From: Myxococcales bacterium
GTDB lineage: Bacteria; Myxococcota_A; Polyangia; Polyangiales; JAFGIB01
Assembly (NCBI GenBank): GCA_028817855.1
Contig: JAPPOT010000210.1
Span: 1-60,385 of the forward strand
Length of the DNA stretch: 60,385 bases
Reading direction: 5' to 3'
This document shows positions 4,028 to 60,385 of the stretch, piece by piece. The position numbers and the translations under genes are program-made. The first letter of the stretch is position 1; each line of letters begins with the position of its first letter. A model generated the notes under the pieces. The model worked only from the letters and a program-made list of their open reading frames with translations. It was not told the origin of the DNA and did not search any database.

Positions 4028-5890
<1,863 letters not shown>

Positions 5891-14615: not shown

Positions 14616-15260
14616 ATGCATCGACGCGCCGTACACCGTAGGTCCGCGACCTACCCACCCGTGCAGCTCACCCTGGTGGTGCTCGCAGCGTCTGCGAGCG
14701 CGTGCCAGGCGGCATCCGCCGAGTACTTCGCCGATACCGACCAACCGCGCGCGGATGATGCGTCGGGCGCGGCCCTGCACGACACCACCATCGAGTTGCC
14801 GGCCTCGCTGCGCGGCGTGCCCACGGGCGAGCGCGCGCCCACCGGTGCGCCGGTAGTGGTCGCCTGCGGTACCTGTCACAACGGCGAGCCCGGTGCGCTG
14901 CCCGCGCAGGCCAGCGAGGTCGCAGGGCCACACACCGGCCTGGTCGTGCAGCACGGCGGCAACACCTGCGGCTCCTGCCACGACCCGAACCGGCGCGACC
15001 GACTCAGGCTCGCCGACGGCCAGCAGCTCGAGCTGACCGAGGCCATGCAGCTCTGCAGCCAGTGTCACGGGACCCAGCGTCGCGACTACGACCACGGTGC
15101 CCACGGCGGCATGGCGGGCCACTGGGACCTCGCCCGCGGGCCGCGCACACGCAACCACTGCATCCATTGCCACGACCCGCATGTGCCGGCCTATCCGCGC
15201 GTGCTGCCCGCGGCGCCGCCGCGCGATCGCTTCTTCGGAGCCGGAGCGGGCCATGAGTAG
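14616..15260 (+). CDS. tetraheme c-type cytochrome (first gene of nap-associated module)
   Basis: Four CXXCH motifs (CGTCH, CGSCH, CSQCH, CIHCH). Signal peptide ending ASASAC. Start at ATG 14616. Confidence 0.8.
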   Translation: MHRRAVHRRSATYPPVQLTLVVLAASASACQAASAEYFADTDQPRADDASGAALHDTTIELPASLRGVPTGERAPTGAPVVVACGTCHNGEPGALPAQASEVAGPHTGLVVQHGGNTCGSCHDPNRRDRLRLADGQQLELTEAMQLCSQCHGTQRRDYDHGAHGGMAGHWDLARGPRTRNHCIHCHDPHVPAYPRVLPAAPPRDRFFGAGAGHE

Positions 15261-15425
15261 AACCCATCTCACAGCCTCCCGTGGGTGGATTCTGGAGCGC
15301 GACGGTGCCGAGCGGCGCATCGGCGAACGGAGGCAATGCGCGGGCATTGTTGAGCGTGAGGTGAGGCGGTGCGCGGTAGTGTCCCGCCCGGAAGGCGCCG
15401 CGAGGAGGCTTTGCGATGGGTTCTA
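15258..15425. mobile_element. MITE-like element, family A copy 1 (TA-flanked, IS630/mariner-type features)
   Basis: The 164-bp body (15260-15423) has TIRs GAACCCATCTCACAGCCTCC and GAACCCATCGCAAAGCCTCC (18 of 20 match). TA lies on both flanks. A copy about 85 percent identical lies inverted at 29167-29332. It sits between the cytochrome and FeS genes. Confidence 0.7.
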
Positions 15426-28891: not shown

Positions 28892-29167
28892 GTGCAGGAG
28901 GTCGAGGTCGGCTCGGAGGTGATCGCGGGCATCGCGTACGACGATGCGTCGCGCGCGTGCGAGGTGCGCTTTGCCAACGGTCGCGTCTACCGCTACGACG
29001 GTGTGCCGCGCAGCGTCTTCGACTGGTGGATGCGCGCGCCCTCGAAGGGCGCCTTCTTCAACCGCAAGGTGCGCGACGTGTACCCCTATCGCGAGCTGGA
29101 GGGAGACCTCCCACCCGAGCCCGACCTGGAGGCGCTGCTCGAGGCCTCCCTGCGGTCCGACGACTAG
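28892..29167 (+). CDS. KTSC domain protein
   Basis: IAGIAYDDASRACEVRFANGRVYRYDGVPRSVFDWWMRAPSKGAFFNRKVRDVYPY matches the KTSC pattern. Start placed at GTG 28892 (uncertain). Confidence 0.65.
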   Translation: MQEVEVGSEVIAGIAYDDASRACEVRFANGRVYRYDGVPRSVFDWWMRAPSKGAFFNRKVRDVYPYRELEGDLPPEPDLEALLEASLRSDD

Positions 29168-29334
29168 AACCCATCTCAAAGAACGTCCTCGCGGCGCCTT
29201 CCGGGCGGGACGCCACCGCCCACCGCGTCGCCTCACGCTCAACAATCCCGGCGCATTGCCTCGGTTCGCCGACGCGCCGCTCGACACCGCCGCGCTCCAG
29301 AGTGCATCGACGGGAGGTTCTGGGACGGGCTCTG
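29165..29334. mobile_element. MITE-like element, family A copy 2 (inverted relative to copy 1)
   Basis: The body (29167-29332) aligns at roughly 85 percent identity to the reverse complement of 15260-15423. The left end GAACCCATCTCAAAG is preceded by TA, which forms the KTSC stop TAG. The right TIR is degenerate and followed by TG. Confidence 0.65.
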
Positions 29335-29466: not shown

Positions 29467-31242
29467 ATGACTGAGCAAGGCATCCGGGTCTCCGATGTGG
29501 CTGCCGCCCAGGGCGTGCTGCTGGTGGGCGCGGATCCGCTGCAGGACTCCCTCACCGCGGAGCTGCGCTCTGCGGGCATCTCGGTGCGGGCCTCGAGCGC
29601 CGCGGAGGCCGCCGACGCGGCGCGCAAGCATCCGCCCGCGCTGCTGGTACTCATCGGCAACGCCGCACGCTTTGGGGTGGTGGAGCTGTGCGACCAGCTG
29701 ATGGAGCTGCCCGGCCCGCCGGTCGAGGTGCTCGCCATCACGCGCCGGTCGCTGCCGCCCGAGGTCCGGCTCAGCCAGCGCACTGCCACGGTCGACCCGG
29801 AGCTGGGCGCGGCCCGCATCGCGCCGCTGGTGGCCGGGGTGCTGCAGTGGACGGATCCGCAGACCGGCGGCGGCAGGCCCCTGACCCTGGCGCGGCGCGT
29901 GGATGCGCTCAGCCACATTCTCGAGCACGAGCTAGAGGCGCAGCAGAGCGCGCCGCCCAAAACGCACAGGCTGGACAGCGGAACGGTCTCGAAGAATGAC
30001 GACGAGGTGACCGCCATCAGCGATGCGCCCACCGTGACCATGCCGAGGGTGGTCGAGCAGCCCGTGGTTGCATCGTCCTTCGATGGGCCGGGGGGCATCC
30101 TTGGCGTGGCCCCGCCCCAGGAGGAGGTGGTCGACTGGCAGCAGGATGGCGAGAGCACGCCCCCGCTGGGCTCGAGCTTCGACGAGGATGAGTCCACCCC
30201 CGCGGTCGGGCTGGCGGAGCTGTTGGAGGGGGCGGTGAAGGCGGCGGATGCGTCCGCGGAGCAGGAGAGCGATAGCGAGGACGCGTACGAGGACGAGGCC
30301 GAGGCCGAGGACGCGTACGAGGCCGAGGACGCGTACGAGGACGCGGGCGCCCACGAGGATGAGGACGAGGCTGCGCACGCGTACGCGCACGAGGCCGAGG
30401 CCGCGCACGAAGACGAGGCCGCGCACGAAGACGACAACGAGAATGAGGATGCACCGGAGAGGGCGGAGGAAGCCGTGGCGGCGTTGCCCCGCGACGAAAG
30501 CGTGCCCCCGCAGCGCAGCTCGCGCCGACCCTCGCTGCGACCCGCGCGGCCGGACTGGTGGGCGCGGGCGCTGGGTCTGGCGGCGCTGGTGGCCTGTGTC
30601 TTCCTGATCTGGCAGCAGCGCGCTCCCGACACACGGCAGCGGGTCGAGGACCACGCCGAGATGGTGCAGCTGGCGGAGCCGGCGGAGTCGGGGGAGACCG
30701 GTGCGGCGGCCGAGACCGGGGCCGAGACCGAGGCCCGCGCCGAGACCGAGGCCGAAGTCGAAGCCGAAGCCGAGACCGGCGGGGCCGAATCCGAGACCGG
30801 AGCCGAGCCCGAGGCCGAGGCCGACAACGACATGGAGATCGCGCTCGACGAGGAGCCCGCGGCGGCCGGCGGTGACGCGCGACCCGCCATGACCAGTCGG
30901 CATGCCCAGGCGGCGGCGCTGGTCGACCAGGGGCACTACTACCAGCGTCAGGGCAACTTCCGTATGGCCGCAAACCGCTACCGCGCGGCGCTCGAGCAGC
31001 TGCCCAACTACCGGCGTGCGCTGGTCGGGCTGGTTCGCTCGGGGTTGCACATGACGGACCGGGGCGAAGCCGTGAAATGGGCGGAGCGCCTAGTCCAGGC
31101 ATATCCGGTGGAGTCGCGTCACCACCTGCTGCTCGGCGATGCGCTCGCGCGCGCTGGCAATCGCGAGCGGGCCCAGGCCGCGTGGAAGGCCGCGGCCGAC
31201 TCCGGCAACGTGATCGCCAAGGCGCGGCTCCAAAAACCGTAG
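29467..31242 (+). CDS. membrane protein with receiver-like N-domain, acidic repeats, one TM helix and C-terminal TPR repeats
   Basis: N-terminus VLLVGADP...ALLVLIGN...VEVLAITRR resembles a CheY fold without the phospho-Asp. TM helix WWARALGLAALVACVFLIW. C-terminal TPR-like sequence (QGHYYQRQGNFRMAANRYRAALEQLPNY...). Confidence 0.65.
   Translation: MTEQGIRVSDVAAAQGVLLVGADPLQDSLTAELRSAGISVRASSAAEAADAARKHPPALLVLIGNAARFGVVELCDQLMELPGPPVEVLAITRRSLPPEVRLSQRTATVDPELGAARIAPLVAGVLQWTDPQTGGGRPLTLARRVDALSHILEHELEAQQSAPPKTHRLDSGTVSKNDDEVTAISDAPTVTMPRVVEQPVVASSFDGPGGILGVAPPQEEVVDWQQDGESTPPLGSSFDEDESTPAVGLAELLEGAVKAADASAEQESDSEDAYEDEAEAEDAYEAEDAYEDAGAHEDEDEAAHAYAHEAEAAHEDEAAHEDDNENEDAPERAEEAVAALPRDESVPPQRSSRRPSLRPARPDWWARALGLAALVACVFLIWQQRAPDTRQRVEDHAEMVQLAEPAESGETGAAAETGAETEARAETEAEVEAEAETGGAESETGAEPEAEADNDMEIALDEEPAAAGGDARPAMTSRHAQAAALVDQGHYYQRQGNFRMAANRYRAALEQLPNYRRALVGLVRSGLHMTDRGEAVKWAERLVQAYPVESRHHLLLGDALARAGNRERAQAAWKAAADSGNVIAKARLQKP
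30271..30450 (+). repeat. coding low-complexity tandem repeat (EDAYE / EAAHED units)
   Basis: Reiterated GAGGACGCGTACGAG and GAGGCCGCGCACGAAGAC units encoding SEDAYEDEAEAEDAYEAEDAYED...EAAHEDEAAHED. Confidence 0.5.
30686..30826 (+). repeat. coding low-complexity tandem repeat (ETGAE / AEAE units)
   Basis: Reiterated GCCGAGACC-type 9-mers encoding GETGAAAETGAETEARAETEAEVEAEAETGGAESETGAEPEAEA. Confidence 0.5.
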
Positions 31243-40458: not shown

Positions 40459-40688
40459 GCCCGGAGCCTACCAGGAGTGAAGAGACGCAGCGTACCCGAG
40501 CTCGAGTCCGCGCCCGAACGCCGAGCAGCACCACCCGCCCCCGCCACTCGAAATCGTCGAGCTTCGTTCAGGAGCGAGCGCGGCCGCTAGGGACAACCGG
40601 AGGCGTGGCGGCGCCACGTCGAGGATTGCCCGAGGACGAAGCCGCTCCTGGGCGAGCCTCGGCGATTGCTCCTCAGTTCAAATCCGAC

Positions 40689-41327
40689 CTAAGCGGACTT
40701 GCGGCGTCGGGTTCGTGTGGGCTGCAACCCCGCCAGTCTGAAGAGCGTGTTGCGGAACAGGCGGTTGGTCTCCGCCGGCGTCAGCTGGCTGTCGTAGAAC
40801 GAGTTGGCTCGCAGGCCCAGTAGCATCGCGTAGGCCGACTGCGCCGCCTCCTCGGCGGTCGTGTCCGGCGCGAGAGGTGTCTGCTCGAAGAGCTCCACGA
40901 ACATGTCCTTGATGCGTCGGTCGTGCATGACCTTCACACGGCGCATGGTGCGGTTCTGCACGGCCTGTCCGTAGAGGTCGAGCATCACGCCCTGGTCGAC
41001 CTTGCGCAGGCCCTTTCCGCTCAGGAAGAGATCCGCGATGGCCTCGATCTTCTCCGCTGGGCCGCGGTCCTCGAGCTCGGCGACCTGCTTGTCGATGCGA
41101 TTGGTGACGGCCTTGAAGAAGGCCTCGAGGATCGCCTCCTTGCCGGGGAAGTAGTAGAGCAGGTGGCTCGACGACATCTCCGCCTCTTCGGCGATGTCGC
41201 ACAAGGTCGTCGCGGCGTACCCCTTCTTCGCCATGCAGCGATAGAGTGCGAGCACGATCTTACCGCGCCGATCGCGCGCATTCATGGCGTCAGCCAGGTT
41301 GATGGTGTTGGGTGACTTCGAGCCCAC
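40689..41327 (-). CDS. TetR/AcrR family transcriptional regulator
   Basis: HTH region KKGYAATTLCDIAEEAEMSSSHLLYYFPGKEAIL. Confidence 0.9.
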   Translation of the reverse strand: MGSKSPNTINLADAMNARDRRGKIVLALYRCMAKKGYAATTLCDIAEEAEMSSSHLLYYFPGKEAILEAFFKAVTNRIDKQVAELEDRGPAEKIEAIADLFLSGKGLRKVDQGVMLDLYGQAVQNRTMRRVKVMHDRRIKDMFVELFEQTPLAPDTTAEEAAQSAYAMLLGLRANSFYDSQLTPAETNRLFRNTLFRLAGLQPTRTRRRKSA

Positions 41328-43089: not shown

Positions 43090-43388
43090 CACGGCCTCGC
43101 AAGTTGGAGGCGCAGCAGGTCGAGACGCGCCTCTCGGAGCTCTCCGCGTGGGCGCTGGTGGACGGCAAGCTGCACCGCGAGCTGCTCTTCGAGGACTTCG
43201 CCGCAGCTTTCGCCTTCATGACGGCGATGGCGCTGGTGTCGGAGTCGCTCGCGCACCACCCGGAGTGGTTCAACGTCTACAACCGCGTCACCATCGACCT
43301 GACGACCCACGACGCCGGCGGCATCACGGAGCTCGACTTCGAGTGGGCGCGTGCCGCCGAGCGCCACCTCGCCGAGCGAACGGCCTAG
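43086..43388 (+). CDS. phhB: 4a-hydroxytetrahydrobiopterin (pterin-4a-carbinolamine) dehydratase
   Basis: 100 aa. LVDGKLHRELLFEDFAAAFAFMTAMALVSESLAHHPEWFNVYNRVTIDLTTHDAGG is the PCD/DCoH signature. ATGA overlap with the anti-sigma stop. Confidence 0.85.
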   Translation: MTRPRKLEAQQVETRLSELSAWALVDGKLHRELLFEDFAAAFAFMTAMALVSESLAHHPEWFNVYNRVTIDLTTHDAGGITELDFEWARAAERHLAERTA

Positions 43389-48351: not shown

Positions 48352-49632
48352 ATGCTACCGAGTCGGACATTCTGGGCAGTGACCGCAGCGCTCGCGCTGG
48401 CGCTTGCCGGGTGCAACAAGAAGGCCGAGAAGAAGGACGACAAGCCCCCCGCAGCGGAGGCCCCCGCGGAAGGCGCGGCGGAGGGGGCGATGATGTCCTC
48501 GCCCGACGCCGACATCCCCGCACCCAAGGACGTGGCCGCGCCACCGGCCGATGCGGAGAAGACCGCGTCGGGGCTCGCAAGCAAGGTCCTGACCAAGGGC
48601 ACCGGCGACAAGAAGCCCGCTCCCCACGACAAGGTGAAGGTCGACTACACGGGCTGGACCACCGACGGGAAGATGTTCGACAGCTCGATCAAGCGCGGCC
48701 GCCCCGCGACGTTCGGCGTCAAGGGCGTGATCCCGGGCTGGACCGAGGCGCTCCAGCTGATGGTGGTGGGCGAGAAGCGACGGCTGTGGATCCCCGAGAT
48801 CCTGGCCTACAAGGGTCGCCCCGGCTCCCCCCAGGGAATGCTCGTCTTCGAGGTGGAGCTGCTGGAGATCATCCCCGGCGTCGCGCCAATCCCCGCGCCC
48901 GACGATGTGGCCGCGGCGCCCGCGGACGCCAAGAAGACCAAGTCCGGCATCGCCTACAAGGAGATCGAGCCGGCGGCGGCGGACGGCAAGGCGCCGAACG
49001 AGTGGGATCAGGTCGAGGTCGAGTACACAGGCTGGACCACCGACGGCAACATGTTCGACAGCTCGACCAAGCGCGGCAAGTCGGCGAAGTTCCCGCTCAA
49101 CAAGGTGATCCCCGGCTGGACCGAGGGCGTGCAGCTGATGAAGACCGGCCAGAAGATGCGCTTCTGGATTCCGGAAGAGCTCGCCTACAAGGGTCGCCCG
49201 GGCGCGCCCAAGGGCATGCTGGTCTTCGACATCAAGCTGCTGAACGTGGAGGAGAAGCCGGCGCCGCCCGAGACGCCGAAGGACGTGGCCAAGCCGCCCC
49301 GGAACGCGAAGAAGACCGACACGGGGTTGGCCTACAAGGTGCTGAAGAAGGGCACGGGCGAGGCCAAGCCGACCGAGACCGACAAGGTCGAGGTGCACTA
49401 CACGGGCTGGACCACCGACGGCCGCATGTTCGACAGCTCGGTCACGCGCGGGAGCACCACCACCTTCGCGGTCAACCGGGTCATCCCCGGCTGGACCGAG
49501 GGTGTGCAGCTGATGCGCGAGGGCGACAAGATGCGCTTCTGGATCCCGGAGGAGCTCGCCTACAAGGGCAAGCCGGGCGCGCCCCAGGGCATGCTGGTCT
49601 TCGACGTGGAGCTGATCAAGATCGTGAAGTAG
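48352..49632 (+). CDS. lipoprotein with three tandem FKBP-type peptidyl-prolyl isomerase domains
   Basis: Lipobox LALALAGC. The unit V.YTGWTTDG.MFDSS..RG....F....VIPGWTEG.QLM..G.K.R.WIP.ELAYKG.PG.P.GMLVF...L occurs three times. Confidence 0.85.
   Translation: MLPSRTFWAVTAALALALAGCNKKAEKKDDKPPAAEAPAEGAAEGAMMSSPDADIPAPKDVAAPPADAEKTASGLASKVLTKGTGDKKPAPHDKVKVDYTGWTTDGKMFDSSIKRGRPATFGVKGVIPGWTEALQLMVVGEKRRLWIPEILAYKGRPGSPQGMLVFEVELLEIIPGVAPIPAPDDVAAAPADAKKTKSGIAYKEIEPAAADGKAPNEWDQVEVEYTGWTTDGNMFDSSTKRGKSAKFPLNKVIPGWTEGVQLMKTGQKMRFWIPEELAYKGRPGAPKGMLVFDIKLLNVEEKPAPPETPKDVAKPPRNAKKTDTGLAYKVLKKGTGEAKPTETDKVEVHYTGWTTDGRMFDSSVTRGSTTTFAVNRVIPGWTEGVQLMREGDKMRFWIPEELAYKGKPGAPQGMLVFDVELIKIVK
48516..49629 (+). 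repeat. internal triplication (about 370 bp per unit) encoding the three FKBP modules
   Basis: Units are approximately 48516-48885, 48886-49260 and 49261-49629. They were recognised at protein level, and the DNA units are visibly related. Confidence 0.6.
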
Positions 49633-52291: not shown

Positions 52292-52996
52292 ATGCACGGC
52301 CGAACATCGGTCGCGGCGCTCGTAGCCGCCCTCTCGCTCGGTCTGGGGGCCTGCGTCTACGACCGTGGTGAGCGCTGCGGACCCGGCCAGACCTATGACG
52401 GCTCCGAGGCTGTCTGTGTCTGCGACGAGGGCACGGTGATCGCGGCCGACGGCGACGGCTGTGAGCCCTGCGGGGACAACGAGGTCGTGGAAGGTGGCGC
52501 CTGCGTGTGCGAGGAGGGCCATGCGCGGAGCAGCGACAGCGCGCCCTGCGAGATGATCGCCGCCGGTCTGGGCGACGCCTGTGACCCGGACGCGACGACG
52601 CCGTGCACGGACGACGACTTCAGCTTCTGCGCCGAGGGCGATGGAGGTGACGCCTACTGCACCCGTCCCGACTGTGGGGACGACGGCGACTGCCCCGCCG
52701 ACCACGTCTGCGATGACCGCGGGGACACGCCCTTCTGCAAGGCACCTCCCTGGGGCCGCGGCAACAGCTGCGAGGCGGAGGATGACTGCGTGGACTTCAC
52801 CGCCAGCTACTGCGAGCCGCTCTTCATCCGGATGTGCCTGGTCGAGGGCTGCGCGGACGGCGGTGAGGCCTGCCATGGCGACTGGGCCTGCTGCGACTTC
52901 CGCGACCTGGCCGGTGTCTCGCTGTGCGTGCCGCCGGAGCAACTGGATGGCGACGCGTGCCCGCTGGGTGTGCCACGCCTGGAGGCGGAGCCATGA
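52292..52996 (+). CDS. Cys-rich acidic lipoprotein (EGF-like CxC motifs)
   Basis: Lipobox LSLGLGAC. About 27 Cys in 234 aa. CVCDEG and CVCEEG motifs. D-rich (YCTRPDCGDDGDCPADHVCDD). Confidence 0.65.
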   Translation: MHGRTSVAALVAALSLGLGACVYDRGERCGPGQTYDGSEAVCVCDEGTVIAADGDGCEPCGDNEVVEGGACVCEEGHARSSDSAPCEMIAAGLGDACDPDATTPCTDDDFSFCAEGDGGDAYCTRPDCGDDGDCPADHVCDDRGDTPFCKAPPWGRGNSCEAEDDCVDFTASYCEPLFIRMCLVEGCADGGEACHGDWACCDFRDLAGVSLCVPPEQLDGDACPLGVPRLEAEP

Positions 52997-54528
52997 TGCG
53001 GTGGTCGATCTTCGCGCTGGTCTGGTGCGCGGCGGGGAGCGCGAGGGCGCAGCCGCCGCCGGCGGTCGAGCCCGGGACCGCGCCGGTGGCCGAGCCCGGG
53101 ACCGGGCCAGTGGCCGAGCCGGCGCCGGCGGCCGAGCCCGTGGCGCCACCCGTGACCGCATCCGAGGCCGAGGCCGCGCCTGTGACGGAGGCTGCGCCCG
53201 CTCCCGACGCCGCGTCCGCTGCCGAGGCGGCGCCCGCACCCGAGGCCACCGCAAGCGCTGTGGAGGTCGGCGCGCAGCCAGAGCACGCGTTCTCATCCGA
53301 GGATTCCGCGCTCGACCTCGAGGCCGAGGCCGAGATCGCGCGTCTGCTCGGCGAGGAGGGCGGCGCGAGCGGGCCCGCACTGCGCCTCTACGGGTTCACC
53401 GACTTCACCTTCTCGAAGCTCTTGATGCCGAAGGACAACCCCTTCTACGTCTTCTTCGAGGAGAGCAGCACCTTCTACGTCGGCAACTTCAACCTCTACT
53501 TGGATGCCGACCTCGACGAGGACTTCCGCGCCCTGTCCGAGGTGCGCTTCCTCTACCTGCCGCACGGGCAGGAGACCGAGGTGACGCCGGAGGGCGAGCC
53601 CTACACCCGCACCTTTGCCGGTGACTACGCGGACGTGAACCGCGACCTGCGCTGGGGCAGCATCGAGATCGAGCGCGCCTGGCTCGACTACACCGTTCAC
53701 CGCTATGTCACCCTGCGCTTCGGCCAGTACCTCACCCCCTATGGCATCTGGAACGTCGACCACGGCTCGCCCGTCGTGGTCGCCACGCGGCGGCCCTACA
53801 TCGTGGGCGAGCAGCTCTTTCCCGAGCGCCAGACGGGTTTGCAGGCCTACGGTTCCCTGGCAGTCAGTGACGACGCCACCCTCGGCTACCACCTGACGCT
53901 GTCCAACGGTCGCGGACCGATCGATTCCTATGCCGATCTGGACGAGAACAAGTCCGTCGGCGGGCGCGCCTACATCGACATCGCTGGCCACGTGCGTTTG
54001 CGCTTTGGTGGTTCCATCTACCACGGTCGCTACACGGACAAGGCGGTGGAGACCGAGATCGTCTCGCCGTCCGAGATCCGCAAGGGCGAGGACATCCTGA
54101 CGCAGTACGACGAGACCGCCCTGGCTCTCGACGCCAAGCTCGAGTACGAGGGGCTGCTGCTGCAGTCCGAGCTCGTGCACAACCAGCGGGCCTACACGGA
54201 GCCCGGACGGCCGACCACGAGTGGCTCCTTCGGCGTCGGCAGCCCGATCGGCTTCGCGTCCGACGACCAGCGCTGGGGCGCCTACGGGCTGCTCGGTTAT
54301 CGCATCGCGGCGATCGCTCTGATGCCGTACGCGTATCTGGAGGTCTACGCTCGCGCGGGGGTATTGGTTCCGGATCTGCTGACCACGCAGCTCGGCCTGA
54401 ACTACCGTCCGAGCTCCGCGGTCGTCGCCAAGATCCAGTACACCTATGCGGGTCTGCCGTCGGCCGAGGGGCTGCTGGGTGACGCCAACATCTCGGCGAT
54501 CGAGACCCAGATCGCCTGGGCGTTCTAG
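52993..54528 (+). CDS. outer-membrane beta-barrel protein candidate with Pro/Ala-rich N-terminal linker
   Basis: Signal peptide MMRWSIFALVWCAAGSARA. PA-rich repeats. Alternating amphipathic strands. C-terminal ...IETQIAWAF (terminal Phe beta-signal). ATGA overlap with the preceding gene. Confidence 0.6.
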   Translation: MMRWSIFALVWCAAGSARAQPPPAVEPGTAPVAEPGTGPVAEPAPAAEPVAPPVTASEAEAAPVTEAAPAPDAASAAEAAPAPEATASAVEVGAQPEHAFSSEDSALDLEAEAEIARLLGEEGGASGPALRLYGFTDFTFSKLLMPKDNPFYVFFEESSTFYVGNFNLYLDADLDEDFRALSEVRFLYLPHGQETEVTPEGEPYTRTFAGDYADVNRDLRWGSIEIERAWLDYTVHRYVTLRFGQYLTPYGIWNVDHGSPVVVATRRPYIVGEQLFPERQTGLQAYGSLAVSDDATLGYHLTLSNGRGPIDSYADLDENKSVGGRAYIDIAGHVRLRFGGSIYHGRYTDKAVETEIVSPSEIRKGEDILTQYDETALALDAKLEYEGLLLQSELVHNQRAYTEPGRPTTSGSFGVGSPIGFASDDQRWGAYGLLGYRIAAIALMPYAYLEVYARAGVLVPDLLTTQLGLNYRPSSAVVAKIQYTYAGLPSAEGLLGDANISAIETQIAWAF

Positions 54529-54706
54529 GGGGTATCCCTAGTTTCTGCGCCGTTGCGAGCCCGGAAGGCTCGAGTGAAGTCGGGCCGAACGGAGTGCGAG
54601 CAGCACAGGCGTACTCGATGTACGTCGCGCGGCGCCGCGCCAGTACGGGTCGAATTCGCTGACAATTTGCGGGCGCAGTAGGCGCAGAAGTTAGGGACAC
54701 CCCCTA
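54526..54706. mobile_element. MITE-like element, family B (TA-flanked)
   Basis: The 177-bp body (54528-54704) has 24-bp TIRs GGGGGTATCCCTAGTTTCTGCGCC and GGGGGTGTCCCTAACTTCTGCGCC (21 of 24 match). TA lies on both flanks. It fills the whole gap between two convergent genes, and both TAG stops use the flanking TA. Confidence 0.6.
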
Positions 54707-56338
54707 GAGGCCCGGCAGCGGTGACGCGAGGGCGTGGCTCGGCGGCTTCATGCCCATCAGCCGCGCGATGGTCGCCGCCACCCGTGCCTGCTCGAGGGGC
54801 TCGCGGTGGCGGGCAGGCTCGACGCCTGGAGCCAGGATCCAGACCGGGACGTGCAGGTCGTAGTCCCACGGGGAGCCGTGGGTGGTGCCCTTGCCGGGCG
54901 TGATGCCGACGTCCGGGAAGACGTGCGGGCGCGTGACCAGGAAGACCTCGCCGCTGCTCTCCGGGTGCACGCTCTGGAGCACTCGCTGCTCGATCGGATC
55001 GCTGGTGCCGTGCAGGCTCCCCAGCGCGGAGGTGTCGTAGGCCGCGAAGATTGCCGGGTGCTTGGCGAGCGCCGTGGTCACGGCGGACCGAATCTTGGGT
55101 GCGCGCGGATGCTTCAGGGCATCGGGCGCCAGGAAGACGAAGGGCGCGGTGAAGCCCGCGACCCAATCGCCCTCACCAGCCACCGCGGCGACTGCACTGC
55201 GCGCGGTGGCGAGGATCTCCTTGCGCGTGACACGATGTCCAGCGCCGTTGCCCTTGCGCTGCTCGGGCAAGGGAGCGACGCCGTGGTCCGAGGTGATCAG
55301 CACCGACAGCCGCGTGCGGGAAGAGAGCGTGTCGATCAGATGCGCGATCGCGAGGTCGGCGCGCCGCAGGTGATCGGCGTACTCCCACGAGTCGGGGCCA
55401 AAGACGTGTCCAGCGTAGTCGGTGCCGGACAGGGAGACGGCGAGCAGGTCTGTGGCGTCGTCCTCACCGAGCCCGAGATTGCGGGTCGCGGCGAGTGCGA
55501 GCTCGACCAGGTACTCGCTCGAATCGGGGAACATGCGCCAAGCGGAGTGCGCGTCCTCGGCTTCGTTCAGCCGGTGCGGGAAGGCAATGCCCAGGCCCTT
55601 GTAGTCGCCCTCGCCCGGGCCCTCGTCGGGGCCGAGCACCTGCGCGAGGCGCTCCGGCTCGGCGGCCTCCCAGACGGTGCCGGGGGCTGCCGTTGGATGC
55701 CGCCGCTGAAAGCGGCCCACCCACTCGGGCAAGGTCTCGGCGTAGTAGGTCGAGGTGGTGAAGCCGCGCGCGGTGGCGTCGTACCAGAGCGCCAGGTCGG
55801 CGCGCTTGCCGCCCGGGATCACGGCGGCGCGGTCCTTGAGCGACAGCGACACCACCTTGCCGCGCCCGCCGGTCTCCGCCTTGAGCGCGTCTGCGATGGT
55901 GGGTACGCGTAGCGCGTCGGGGCCCGCGTGGGCGCCCTTCTTGCCGTGCACCGTATGCTGCCCGTCGTCCACCACCGAGCGCGAGCGTCCGCTGCGGCGA
56001 TCGATCCAGTAGTTCGAGGTGACGCCACTCTCACGCGGCGCGGCGCCCGTGTAGATCGAAGCGTGCCCCGGTGCGGTATAGGTGGCGGCGTAGGCATAGG
56101 TCACGCGTTCGTAGACCAGCCCGCGGCTGGACGCCCGACGAAGCGCGCCCTCGGGCGACAGCAGCGGCTCCAGCTTGGCGAAGGCCTCGCTGCCGAGCTG
56201 ATCGATCACGATCACGAGCATCAGCTGCGGCCGCGCGCCGCGCGCCTCGAGCGCCTCGGCCGTGCGCTGCGCGCTGCCGCACGCGACCAGCAGCGGGATG
56301 AGGAGCGGAGCCCATCGGACGTGGCGGGGAAGGCGCAT
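54704..56338 (-). CDS. alkaline phosphatase / nucleotide pyrophosphatase superfamily lipoprotein (PafA-like)
   Basis: Lipobox LIPLLVAC. LMLVIVIDQLGSE, TAPGHASIYTGA, GTDYAGHVFGP, ITSDHG, GTTHGSPWDYD. Confidence 0.8.
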   Translation of the reverse strand: MRLPRHVRWAPLLIPLLVACGSAQRTAEALEARGARPQLMLVIVIDQLGSEAFAKLEPLLSPEGALRRASSRGLVYERVTYAYAATYTAPGHASIYTGAAPRESGVTSNYWIDRRSGRSRSVVDDGQHTVHGKKGAHAGPDALRVPTIADALKAETGGRGKVVSLSLKDRAAVIPGGKRADLALWYDATARGFTTSTYYAETLPEWVGRFQRRHPTAAPGTVWEAAEPERLAQVLGPDEGPGEGDYKGLGIAFPHRLNEAEDAHSAWRMFPDSSEYLVELALAATRNLGLGEDDATDLLAVSLSGTDYAGHVFGPDSWEYADHLRRADLAIAHLIDTLSSRTRLSVLITSDHGVAPLPEQRKGNGAGHRVTRKEILATARSAVAAVAGEGDWVAGFTAPFVFLAPDALKHPRAPKIRSAVTTALAKHPAIFAAYDTSALGSLHGTSDPIEQRVLQSVHPESSGEVFLVTRPHVFPDVGITPGKGTTHGSPWDYDLHVPVWILAPGVEPARHREPLEQARVAATIARLMGMKPPSHALASPLPGL

Positions 56339-57772: not shown

Positions 57773-57965
57773 ATGGGGGCTGTTTTCCGTCGAAAGCGCC
57801 CGACTTTCAACCAGATGAGAGGTGTCCCTGATTGGGAATGGCTGTCTAGGGGCCCGCAATTGTGGGCTTTCCCGCTGCGCAGGCCGGATCACCCCTCGGA
57901 ACAGGGGATACAGTGTGCTACATCTGCCCGCGGTGCTTGGGGGTCCGGCTGTACGAGGTGCTGTG

Positions 57966-60385
57966 GTGTCTTTGGATTCGCGCTTCGAGCGCCCCGGGTC
58001 GATTCCCGCGGGCACAATTCAACTGTTCTTAATTGCTGCGTTGATCGCCGGCTGCGGGGACGACGCCAACGAGACGGGCGAGGCTGATCAGCCGACCACC
58101 GCGCAGCGTGATGGGGGCTCGGACGAGCAGCCCGCCGACGAGCCCGACGCGGGCGATCAGGACGGCGGTGGCGGTCCCGAAGACCCGCCCAGCGGCGACG
58201 ACCCCGAGCCGGCGGAGGATGCGGATGAGGACCCCGCGCCCGGTGACGACCCGATCTCGGAGGAGGACGAGGACGCCGGCGTCGGCGAGGAGGTGGTCCC
58301 CGGCGACTGCAACGACGGGGCGCTCAACGGCCTCGAGACGGGCCTCGACTGCGGCGGCCCCACCTGCGACCCCTGCGCCGACGACGAGGTCTGCGCCCTC
58401 GATCGCGACTGCGAGTCGGGGGTGTGCGCCGAGGACGGCCTCTGCGGCGAGGACACGTGCCCGGACGACGAGGGCAAGCGCGCGCCCGGCGTGTGCGGCT
58501 GCGGCGTGAGCGACGACGACAGCGATGGCGACGGCCGGCCCGACTGTCTGGACGGCTGCCCCGAGGATGCCGCCAAGTCCGCGCCTGGCCGCTGTGGATG
58601 CGGCGAGGTCGAGGACCCGACCGACAGCGACGGCGACAGCTTCCTCGACTGCGAGGAGAGCTGCGACCGGGATGGCGACAAGACCGAGCCTGGCGTGTGC
58701 GGCTGCGGCGTGAGCGACGGTGACACCGACAGCGATGGCACGGCGGACTGCATGGATGGCTGCCCGGACGACGGCGGCAAGGTCGAGCCGCTGAGCTGCG
58801 GCTGCGGCGTGGCCGAGACCGACGGCGACAGCGACGGCACCCCGGACTGCGACGATGGGTGTCCGGAAGATGCCGCCAAGACCGACGCGGGCGTCTGCGG
58901 CTGCGGCGAGAGCGATGCGGACAGCGACGCCGATGGCACCGCCGACTGCGATGACGAGTGCCCGAGTGACGTCGACAAGACCGTGCCCGGCCAGTGCGGA
59001 TGCGGCGTCACGGAGGATGCCGGGGACCGCGATGGCGACGGCACGATCGACTGCTTCGATGGCTGCCCCGATGACCCGGAGCAGACCCGGCCCGGACCTT
59101 GCGGCTGCGGCGAGCCCACCGATGCAGGGGATCAGGACGGCGACGGCGTGATCGATTGCGCCGACGAGTGCGACGAGGATCCCAACAAGTCGGAGCCGGG
59201 CGTGTGCGGCTGCGGTGTGGTGGAGGACGTGGCCAACGACGATGGCGACGCCCTGGTCAACTGCCTGGATGGCTGCCCGGCGGACGCTGCCAAGACCGAG
59301 GCCGGCGTGTGCGGCTGCGGTGTGGTGGAGGACGTGGCCAACGACGACGGCGACGGCGCCGTCAACTGCCTGGACGGCTGCCCGGCGGACCCGGTCAAGA
59401 CCGCGCCGGGCGAGTGCGGCTGCGGGATCGTGGAGGACGCCGGCGATCCGGATGGCGACGGCGTGCTCAATTGCTTCGACGAGTGCCCGGACGACCCCGA
59501 CAAGGTCGCGCCGGGCCAGTGCGGCTGCGGCGTGGTGGACGTGCTCGACGACAGCGACGGTGACGGGACCCTCGACTGCAACGACGGCTGCCCGGACGAT
59601 GGCGAGAAGACCGAGCCTGGCGCTTGCGGCTGCGGCGTGACCGAGGATGCCGCCGATGACGACGGCGACGGCACGCTCAACTGCTTCGACGCGTGTGTGG
59701 ATGACCCGGACAAGACCGAGCCGGGTGTGTGTGGCTGCGGCGAGCCCGAGCTCTCGGACGACAGCGACGGCGACGGCACCGCCGACTGCATCGATGGCTG
59801 CGTCGACGACCCGGACAAGACCGAGGCCGGTCTGTGCGGCTGCGGCGTGCCCGAGCAGAGCGACGACAGCGATGGCGACGGCACGATCGACTGCTTCGAC
59901 GGCTGCCCCGACGACGGCGACAAGACCGAGGCGGGCCTGTGTGGCTGCGGCATCGCCGACACAGACACCGACAACGACGGCACCCCGGACTGCACCGACG
60001 GGTGTGACGACGACCCCAACACGACTGCCGTCTGCTTCCCGTACATGCCGTCGAACGTGGACGAGACCAGTCTCGACTTCAGCGCAGCACCGGTCGCCGT
60101 GCTCGACTGTGGCCTGACGACGATCCGCAGCGACGACCCGGCCAGCGTCGAGGGCTGGTGCGGTGACGCGCCCCCGCTGGTGCCCGTCACGCAGCGGGAC
60201 GGTGGCCACGCGCTGGTGGTCGTGCTGCGCGGCTTGACCGTGGCCGACGGCAGCACCCTGCGGGTGGTCGGCGAGCGGCCGGTGATCCTTGCGGGCGACG
60301 GAGACGTGAGCATTGAGGGCGTGGTCGACGCTGCGGCCAGCGGCAGCACGCCGGGCGCCGGAGGCGACGCGCCGGGCACCGATAC
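57966..60385 (+). CDS. large secreted lipoprotein with acidic linker, Cys-rich module and 15 tandem CGCG/DxDxDG repeats (3' partial, runs off window)
   Basis: Not in the supplied ORF track because it has no stop in the window. I hand-translated the frame (positions divisible by 3), which is open from 57819 to the end. Lipobox LFLIAALIAGC at about 58023-58055. Repeat consensus is C-P-x-D-x-x-K-T-E-P-G-x-C-G-C-G-V-x-D-x-D-x-D-G-D-G-T-x-D-C-x-D-G. Start is uncertain (GTG 57966 after GAGGTG; alternatives GTG 57963 or TTG 57972). Confidence 0.8.
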   Translation, partial: MSLDSRFERPGSIPAGTIQLFLIAALIAGCGDDANETGEADQPTTAQRDGGSDEQPADEPDAGDQDGGGGPEDPPSGDDPEPAEDADEDPAPGDDPISEEDEDAGVGEEVVPGDCNDGALNGLETGLDCGGPTCDPCADDEVCALDRDCESGVCAEDGLCGEDTCPDDEGKRAPGVCGCGVSDDDSDGDGRPDCLDGCPEDAAKSAPGRCGCGEVEDPTDSDGDSFLDCEESCDRDGDKTEPGVCGCGVSDGDTDSDGTADCMDGCPDDGGKVEPLSCGCGVAETDGDSDGTPDCDDGCPEDAAKTDAGVCGCGESDADSDADGTADCDDECPSDVDKTVPGQCGCGVTEDAGDRDGDGTIDCFDGCPDDPEQTRPGPCGCGEPTDAGDQDGDGVIDCADECDEDPNKSEPGVCGCGVVEDVANDDGDALVNCLDGCPADAAKTEAGVCGCGVVEDVANDDGDGAVNCLDGCPADPVKTAPGECGCGIVEDAGDPDGDGVLNCFDECPDDPDKVAPGQCGCGVVDVLDDSDGDGTLDCNDGCPDDGEKTEPGACGCGVTEDAADDDGDGTLNCFDACVDDPDKTEPGVCGCGEPELSDDSDGDGTADCIDGCVDDPDKTEAGLCGCGVPEQSDDSDGDGTIDCFDGCPDDGDKTEAGLCGCGIADTDTDNDGTPDCTDGCDDDPNTTAVCFPYMPSNVDETSLDFSAAPVAVLDCGLTTIRSDDPASVEGWCGDAPPLVPVTQRDGGHALVVVLRGLTVADGSTLRVVGERPVILAGDGDVSIEGVVDAAASGSTPGAGGDAPGTD
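58458..60026 (+). repeat. 15 tandem coding repeats of 96-105 bp (thrombospondin-type-3-like Ca-binding motif plus CGCG)
   Basis: Each unit has 4 Cys and a DxDxDGDGxxDC motif. Units 8 and 9 (59193-59297 and 59298-59402) are nearly identical at DNA level. Confidence 0.8.

Follow-up and report, generated by a model that had tools for sequence, protein, structure and literature searches.

A recently mobile MITE with IS427-type ends between two convergent stop codons in an uncultured Polyangia bacterium

Introduction

The insertion sequences (IS) of the IS427 group measure 832-865 bp and have inverted repeats of 13-21 bp, a direct repeat of 2 bp and two open reading frames (ORFs) with a frameshift (PMC3281130). 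One member of the group forms cointegrates, which implies replicative transposition (PMC3281130). The duplication of TA together with a preference for CTAG is regarded as the signature of IS630 (Tenzen and Ohtsubo 1991; as far as the tabulation in PMC2577343 goes), and ISY100 is likewise cited for a signature of the IS630 type (PMC2170065).

In this study we analysed a stretch of 60,385 bp, here called the window (contig JAPPOT010000210.1 of assembly GCA_028817855.1), from the genome of a member of an uncultured Polyangia lineage. At positions 54528-54704 it carries a 177-bp element which lies between the stop codons of two convergent genes, and which is assigned below to a family, designated family B, of transposable elements of the miniature inverted-repeat type (MITEs). 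RUP of pneumococcus is a MITE that was grouped with the IS630/Tc1-mariner elements, and an earlier note on the window, made from the sequence alone, had attributed the 177-bp element to IS630.

Results

The window element is very probably a copy of a non-autonomous MITE of about 176 bp with ends of the IS427 type, which was inserted at the TA of a CTAG and rebuilt the stop codons at both of its ends. The terminal inverted repeats (TIRs), the TA on both flanks and the coordinates reported in the earlier note were all recovered: the 24-nt ends match at 21 of 24 positions, and a repeat search found the pair as 28-nt arms, flanks included, with 89% complementarity. The element is flanked as ...GCGTTCTA - element - TAGAGGCC..., and its excision in silico together with one TA yields CTGGGCGTTCTAGAGGCCCGG, in the context ...GCGTTCTAGAGGCCC..., as had been claimed. 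In the window the 13-nt end motif was found two times, with 0.05 occurrences expected, which together with the copies in the rest of the genome makes the element more than a product of chance.

The genome assembly comprises 8.57 Mb in 941 contigs with a G+C content of 69.7%, and contains no contigs below 2,002 bp. The genome-wide search for copies that the earlier note had proposed revealed 13 full-length copies of family B (90-95% identity) and about six partial ones, several of them at contig ends. Nearly all copies read cTA-GGGGGT...ACCCCC-TAg, with hyphens here and below marking the junctions. The TIRs are nearly perfect in the consensus, and no reading frame is conserved among the copies. 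More distant relatives were found in metagenomes (L298, 83% over the full length; L168, 71%) and in another genome (G007, 72%). Best conserved in this genome, G007, G004 and L298 is the centre of the element (GTGCGAGCAGCACAGGCGTACTCG..GTACGTCG; alignment columns 66-100, window 54593-54627), and these central 35 nt are more conserved across genera than the subterminal arms.

Two sister assemblies (GCA_041940225.1 and GCA_041941105.1) with 96-98% nucleotide identity were reached via exact-protein look-ups. Because the sister strain is empty at C939, C198, C775, C292 and C735 (loci of the window's genome carry the prefix C; Table 1), at least five family-B insertions are younger than the split of the two strains. 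Family B is a real and recently mobile MITE, and the MITE call of the earlier note holds for a multi-copy, non-coding sequence with TIRs and exact empty sites in a sister strain. At C735 the gene next to the element encodes a Na+/H+ exchanger/cNMP-binding protein and stops in the window's strain on TA-G at the MITE junction; the 15 nt missing there lie at the right end of the MITE (C735:1997-2000 compared to L062 5254-5269), and the protein has 918 amino acids (aa) compared to 923 aa in the sister. The related genomes of the same genus are too distant for a search of empty sites, since protein identity to them is only about 55% and the genes on either side of the window element are not adjacent there.

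Junctions of the form CTA-G...C-TAG fit a 2-bp duplication of TA by an element with the ends G and C, and a 4-bp duplication of CTAG, equally well. Copies with unequal outer bases exist in family A, a second MITE family of the window, where they read gTA-G..C-TAg, tTA-G..C-TAg and in two cases cTA-G..C-TAa. Elements with family-B ends in other genomes are flanked by TTAG/CTAG (twice), CTAG/CTAC and CTAG/CTAA. Because such copies in non-palindromic targets exist, it is TA that is duplicated, and the G and the C are part of the element; a 4-bp duplication of the whole CTAG or YTAR, as in MITEPsy1, is ruled out by the unequal flanking 4-mers. CTAG is the preferred target. Where the search had fixed TA alone, the preceding base was C in 96, T in 8, G in 7 and A in 3 of 114 cases. 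The TA duplication in a preferred CTAG, as proposed in the earlier note, is therefore borne out by the flanks of the copies.

The same note had suggested that the terminal G and C rebuild both TAG stops, and this could be seen directly at the paralogous copy C939. In the sister strain one CTAG is common to two convergent gene calls, which overlap by exactly 4 nt and encode UppS and a 301-aa ORF with the best coding statistics of its interval. After the insertion both genes still end in TAG. At least one end lies exactly on the TAG of a long ORF with high G+C content at the third codon position (GC3) in 10 of the 13 full copies. CTAG occurs 3,680 times in the 8.57-Mb genome, compared to 64,623 GATC sites, and ORF stops make up 22-26% of the CTAG sites and about 30% of the CTAGs outside genes. 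Measured against this background of 30%, at least 10 of 13 copies on stops represent an enrichment (binomial probability about 1e-3 or less), which could reflect selection as much as targeting. According to crude counts 17-43 CTAGs are shared by convergent ORFs, and an unoccupied one is found at window 43385-43388. A bias in the orientation to the adjoining gene, which a first count had suggested, vanished when the strand was handled (9/17 right versus 5/15 left ends).

We propose that family B would be moved in trans by an IS427-type transposase. The element inserts at TA with a strong preference for CTAG, duplicating the TA. Insertion into CTAG recreates CTAG at both junctions, because the element begins with G and ends with C, and a gene using this TAG as stop on either strand therefore keeps its exact stop codon. 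As CTAG is very rare at a G+C content of 69.7% and about one quarter of the sites are gene stops, tolerated insertions accumulate on stops.

Exact scans of the genome and metagenome collections with the 24-26-nt TIR found nothing, and only the shorter 16/17-mer led to the parent element. With this terminus more than 105 loci were found in genomes and more than 120 in metagenomes, the majority from Polyangia. Solitary termini across public collections are uninterpretable, since chance alone would account for a few hundred occurrences of a 16-mer in 596 Gb. Among the loci are 24 elements of 859-878 bp from across the Polyangia, which have GGGGGTGTCCCTAG(T/A)T as an inverted repeat at both ends and lie between cTA and TAg; Labilithrix luteola DSM 27648 has one such element of about 862 bp with family-B ends on its complete chromosome. 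The elements of about 862 bp contain two overlapping frames, of which OrfA matches PF13340/DUF4096 (4.9e-26) and OrfB PF01609/DDE_Tnp_1 (4.7e-22). The joined OrfAB matches the full NCBIfam model NF033580 'IS5 family transposase' with 270.6 bits (cut-off 110, E 1.4e-80). Size, end length, 2-bp repeat and two-frame layout match the list for the IS427 group, and the elements are therefore assigned to it. Judged by its domains and termini the parent is an IS of about 862 bp from the IS427 group of the IS5 family, of the two-ORF type with a predicted frameshift fusion.

The terminal 14-17 nt of the MITE are identical to the ends of this IS, and in one IS end (L088) the agreement with the MITE TIR extends over about 24 nt. 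Several unrelated MITE families have these same IS427-type ends. The attribution to IS630 in the earlier note fails, as the same termini bound an element of the IS5/IS427 type. An IS630 transposase was not detected in the window's genome, where neither PF13358 nor NF033545 gave a match above noise, and none of the IS630 loci of related genomes has family-B ends. Two IS630-family elements of about 1.16-1.19 kb (L050 106-1272 of G011 and L055 980-2177 of G006) are also flanked by CTA-G...C-TAG. IS630 and IS427-type elements thus share these junctions, and an end design that rebuilds CTAG recurs in two unrelated transposase families of this lineage. A candidate for the cognate transposase, for which a search had been suggested in the earlier note, was found as an IS5-type protein with the same termini across Polyangia, while the window's genome holds decayed fragments only (C321, C20, C396 and C812). 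A repeat of 862 bp would have been filtered from this bin, because its smallest contig has 2,002 bp.

At the window locus the sister strain contains neither the MITE nor a shared CTAG. Its phosphatase gene ends with ...GGC AGC TAG and the opposing gene, called the barrel gene in the earlier note, with ...TTC TAG, and between them lie 1,077 bp with CTAG at both ends. This spacer encodes the N-terminal 81 aa of a carboxylesterase, preceded by a promoter-like and ribosome-binding-site region of their own, as well as a small VOC/glyoxalase ORF; by their sequences these appear as decayed, native-looking genes. No DNA match to the spacer was found with blastn in the window's genome. The empty site TTCTAGAGG, which the earlier note had expected at this locus, was not found, the stops of the nearest strain being two distinct CTAGs at a distance of 1,077 bp. 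Compared to that arrangement, the window allele is therefore one in which the spacer is lost and the MITE is present.

An identical phosphatase is encoded on four other metagenome contigs, and the MITE is present at its stop in all four. One of them (L044) continues into the barrel gene, another (L043) into the flank of C939, and two end within the repeat. L043 (ENA scaffold_627) enters the MITE at 4636-4810 from the phosphatase side and exits into the C939 flank (UppS, purD), and this join was either made by the assembler as a chimera across the repeat or reflects a true recombinant. The window copy departs from the consensus at eight positions, one in the left and seven in the right part (post-hoc p about 0.016), which weakly favours an origin from two copies, be it biological or computational. 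Three routes fit the window allele: a CTAG-to-CTAG deletion followed by insertion, two insertions followed by recombination, or one insertion followed by intramolecular transposition. The order and the mechanism of the spacer loss are what we infer from these comparisons.

The features of the window locus, the family-B sites that were compared between the two strains and the solitary stubs are listed in Table 1.

Table 1. Coordinates of the features at the window locus, state of family-B sites in the sister strain, and positions of solitary stubs
Feature	Position	Strand	Remark
Family-B MITE copy	54528..54704	+	177 bp, non-coding; full length forms one imperfect hairpin
Left TIR GGGGGTATCCCTAGTTTCTGCGCC	54528..54551	+	position 7 is G in the family consensus
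Right TIR, reverse complement GGGGGTGTCCCTAACTTCTGCGCC	54681..54704	-	TIR-internal CTAG lost in the window copy (TTAG)
Left copy of the duplicated target TA	54526..54527	.	flanking cTA in nearly all copies
Right copy of the duplicated target TA	54705..54706	.	same basis: flanks of the copies, unequal outer bases
TAG stop of the upstream gene	54526..54528	+	TA is flank, G is the first MITE base
TAG stop of the phosphatase-family gene	54704..54706	-	C (complement G) is the last MITE base, TA is flank
Gene for 511-aa secreted protein ending ...AWAF	52993..54528	+	possibly an outer-membrane porin-like barrel (unproven)
Gene for 544-aa alkaline-phosphatase-superfamily phosphodiesterase/pyrophosphatase	54704..56338	-	PF01663, 8.2e-33
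Family-B site	C939		sister: exact empty site GAGGGGCTAGCCGCC, compared to GAGGGGCTA[MITE]TAGCCGCC in the window's strain
Family-B site	C198		sister: exact empty site
Family-B site	C775		sister: empty CTAG at the same position
Family-B site	C292		sister: as at C775, with diverged flanks
Family-B site	C152		MITE present in both strains
Family-B site	C735		sister: empty; window's strain lacks 15 nt (5 codons) directly beside the element
Solitary 13-nt stubs	C107:7687-7702, C419:5194-5209, C482:10409-10424, C573:8103-8118, C768:7838-7853, C137:~2366, C572:~13516, C274:~5773

The two ORFs that meet at the window MITE have 553 open codons with a GC3 of 0.87 on the plus strand and 563 open codons with a GC3 of 0.88 on the minus strand. 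Both stops were placed correctly in the earlier note (at 54526-54528 as TAG, and at 54704-54706 as CTA read in reverse complement), and its phosphatase indeed belongs to the alkaline-phosphatase superfamily according to PF01663. The plus-strand gene was also called with 511 aa in an independent assembly (L044). Its C-terminal ...AWAF is present as described. The label 'barrel' is plausible and remains unproven, as the only Pfam match is a sub-threshold one to Porin_O_P (E 0.078, 12.6 bits versus a cut-off of 20.9) and no sequence match was found in the PDB.

Apart from full and partial copies the genome contains eight solitary 13-nt stubs of the form CTA-GGGGGTGTCC-CTAG, which are directly followed by unrelated sequence and several of which abut gene stops. 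Each stub corresponds to the first 10 nt of the TIR as far as its internal CTAG, and about 0.001 such sequences are expected by chance in the genome. One metagenome-assembled genome of the Nannocystaceae contains at least five comparable stubs, and a longer end fragment of family B with 28 nt is located at C89:1297-1324. The stubs may be relics of deletion or excision. The one at C107 is absent from the sister strain, which is too diverged at this place to show the origin of the stub. A putative degraded family-B remnant at window 57819-57912 is unsupported, its matches spanning only 9-13 nt with E of at least 0.2.

Family A is represented in the window at 15260-15423 and 29167-29332 by copies of 164-166 bp with the ends GAACCCATCTCA. 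The genome contains 20 full copies among 49 matches, and 69 termini with at most one mismatch. The family is abundant also in G006, G018 and G044, and its copies duplicate TA, with CTAG as the preferred target. A scan of 121 genomes of the order for a parent yielded only MITE-sized and mini pairs of its termini and none with the size of an IS. A distant kinship of the families A and B, as suspected in the earlier note, could not be upheld, since global alignments in both orientations score no better than shuffled sequences (z about 0 and -1.2). In the sister strain the sequence CTAGAACCCGTCTAGGTGGGTCCTAG (L047 5693-5716) is located between the TAG of the glyoxalase-like ORF and the stop of the barrel gene; with its ends (GAACCC.../...GGGTTC) it resembles a family-A element in collapsed form, placed between two convergent stops. 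Comparable mini-forms of family A are found at C482 (CTAGAACCCACTTGGATGGGTTCTAG) and C784:8044-8087 of the window's genome and also in G044.

The window contains further repeats. A short one at 40512-40690 has about 183 matches in the genome and is not flanked by TA. Another at 30669-30836 with about 113 matches looks like a G+C-rich coding repeat for acidic sequence. The regions 58334-60028 and 48514-49623 are long coding stretches with internal repetition, which match themselves at offsets of about 100 bp and about 375 bp with 70-75% identity.

Discussion

Several observations weigh against the interpretation of the window element as an inserted MITE with IS427-type ends. No empty site was found for the window copy itself, and the last phosphatase codon, directly beside the junction, is CTC where the sister has AGC. 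The assembly contains no intact IS427-type transposase but fragments only, with 70-80% identity. The similarity between MITE and IS is confined to the termini and demonstrates shared ends, from which a descent by internal deletion would be a further step, and the enrichment at gene stops was measured with a crude gene map based on ORFs and GC3.

An alternative is an IS630-family MITE that entered, by a single simple insertion, the TA of a CTAG already shared by both genes (TTCTAGAGG). TA duplication and CTAG preference are textbook features of IS630 (as far as PMC2577343 tabulates them; for ISY100 PMC2170065), the IS630 elements of related genomes have the same CTA-G...C-TAG junctions, and an insertion into a shared CTAG did occur at C939. 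Convergent stops of this kind exist elsewhere in the window's genome, and a prior deletion of the spacer from CTAG to CTAG could have made the shared site before the insertion. However, the termini belong to an IS5/IS427-type element, the genome is devoid of an IS630 transposase, the IS630 loci of relatives lack family-B ends, and the nearest strain has two CTAG stops separated by 1,077 bp, so that we regard this scenario as rather unlikely. A serious possibility, though less likely than not, is a deletion associated with the MITE: in an ancestor similar to the sister strain MITEs that had inserted at both CTAGs would have recombined, or one MITE would have moved by intramolecular (replicative) transposition into the second CTAG, and the spacer would have been removed, with a single MITE left in contact with both stops. 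This would agree with the CTAG at both ends of the spacer, with its decayed native-looking genes that have no blastn match in the window's genome, with the uneven distribution of the eight differences, which is expected of a recombinant, and with the cointegrates formed by an IS427-group member (PMC3281130). C735 also lacks 15 nt beside the element relative to the sister, but that gap has no TA at its far end and thus misfits intramolecular transposition; L043 joins the window MITE to the C939 flank, but may be an assembler chimera. Furthermore no intermediate allele was seen, and the polarity is not fixed by an outgroup, as the two genes lie apart in the genome of the same genus.

It is highly improbable that the window allele is an assembly artefact, in which the true order would be phosphatase-MITE-spacer-MITE-barrel, with the two MITEs collapsed and a short spacer contig dropped from the bin. 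Mis-joins and breaks at the repeat do occur (L043 runs into the flank of another copy, and L045, L046 and L049 break off within the MITE), the bin is free of contigs below 2,002 bp, and the variants of the window copy are spread in a lopsided manner. Nevertheless, the window contig and L044, which is from another sample, independently give the same phosphatase-MITE-barrel join, two extra insertions would be required, and the spacer has no blastn match in the window's genome. Very doubtful, too, is a co-option of the element as a G+C-rich hairpin which, transcribed from either gene, would act as a bidirectional 3'-end stabiliser or terminator. Family B folds from end to end into a very stable hairpin (-106.7 kcal/mol, z -9.07), the diverged copy of G007 keeps five stem pairs through double changes, the central 35 nt are best conserved across genera, and copies are enriched at gene stops. 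On the other hand a scan for terminators and promoters revealed no U-tract or terminator-like site, nothing in Rfam matched at E up to 1, the covariation term of 0.07 is close to zero, and the ends on gene stops show no orientation bias. The location is explained by the CTAG target together with selection against insertions within genes, and the sites are polymorphic between the strains. We read family B as a near-neutral passenger and not as a domesticated part.

An IS427-type transposase acting on MITE ends might also make adjacent deletions from CTAG to CTAG. This is unlikely, but if true it would explain the exact loss of the 1,077-bp spacer, the 13-nt stubs, which were also found in another Polyangia genome, and the mini-forms of family A. 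A stop-codon-targeting element would then trim the intergenic DNA of genomes with high G+C content while leaving every frame intact, and would in this way shape gene content.

For annotation the MITE with IS427-type ends calls for caution, since a TA duplication in CTAG is not diagnostic of IS630 and IS5/IS427-type elements give the same junctions; here the two were told apart only by the termini of the autonomous copy. With CTAG as its target, which is rare in a G+C-rich genome, and with G as first and C as last base, such an element falls for the most part on TAG stops without damaging them. It is therefore near-harmless and can persist between tightly packed convergent genes. The copies of family B provide strain-level presence/absence markers for this uncultured Polyangia lineage, and the family accounts for the broken contigs and chimeric joins of metagenome assemblies from that lineage.

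Among the known elements, IS1248, ISPaes1 and ISPam4 of Paracoccus from the IS427 group (PMC3281130) resemble the autonomous elements with family-B termini in the length of about 862 bp, the inverted ends of about 16-17 nt starting with GG, the 2-bp duplication and the two overlapping ORFs. The window element differs from that group in having 177 bp and no ORFs, and only its ends match. The preference for CTAG (84% C before TA) was measured in this study and is not taken from the literature on the group. MITEPsy1 of Pseudomonas syringae, which is derived from IS5, is likewise small and non-coding with IS5-like ends and a CTAG target (PMC3189936). However, it duplicates all four nucleotides, CTAG or YTAA (PMC3189936), whereas family B duplicates TA only, and the copies with unequal outer bases assign the outer C to the target and the G to the element. 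The IS630/Tc1-mariner elements (IS630, ISY100) share the TA duplication, IS630 itself prefers CTAG, and the same junctions are found in related genomes, but the termini of family B go together with an IS5-type protein with DUF4096 and DDE_Tnp_1 and not with the DDE_3 of IS630. A MITE associated with the IS427 group in an uncultured Polyangia lineage is thus an element of a kind already known. New are the empty sites, the test of the 2-bp duplication, the IS5/IS427 parent and the sister allele that is not empty.

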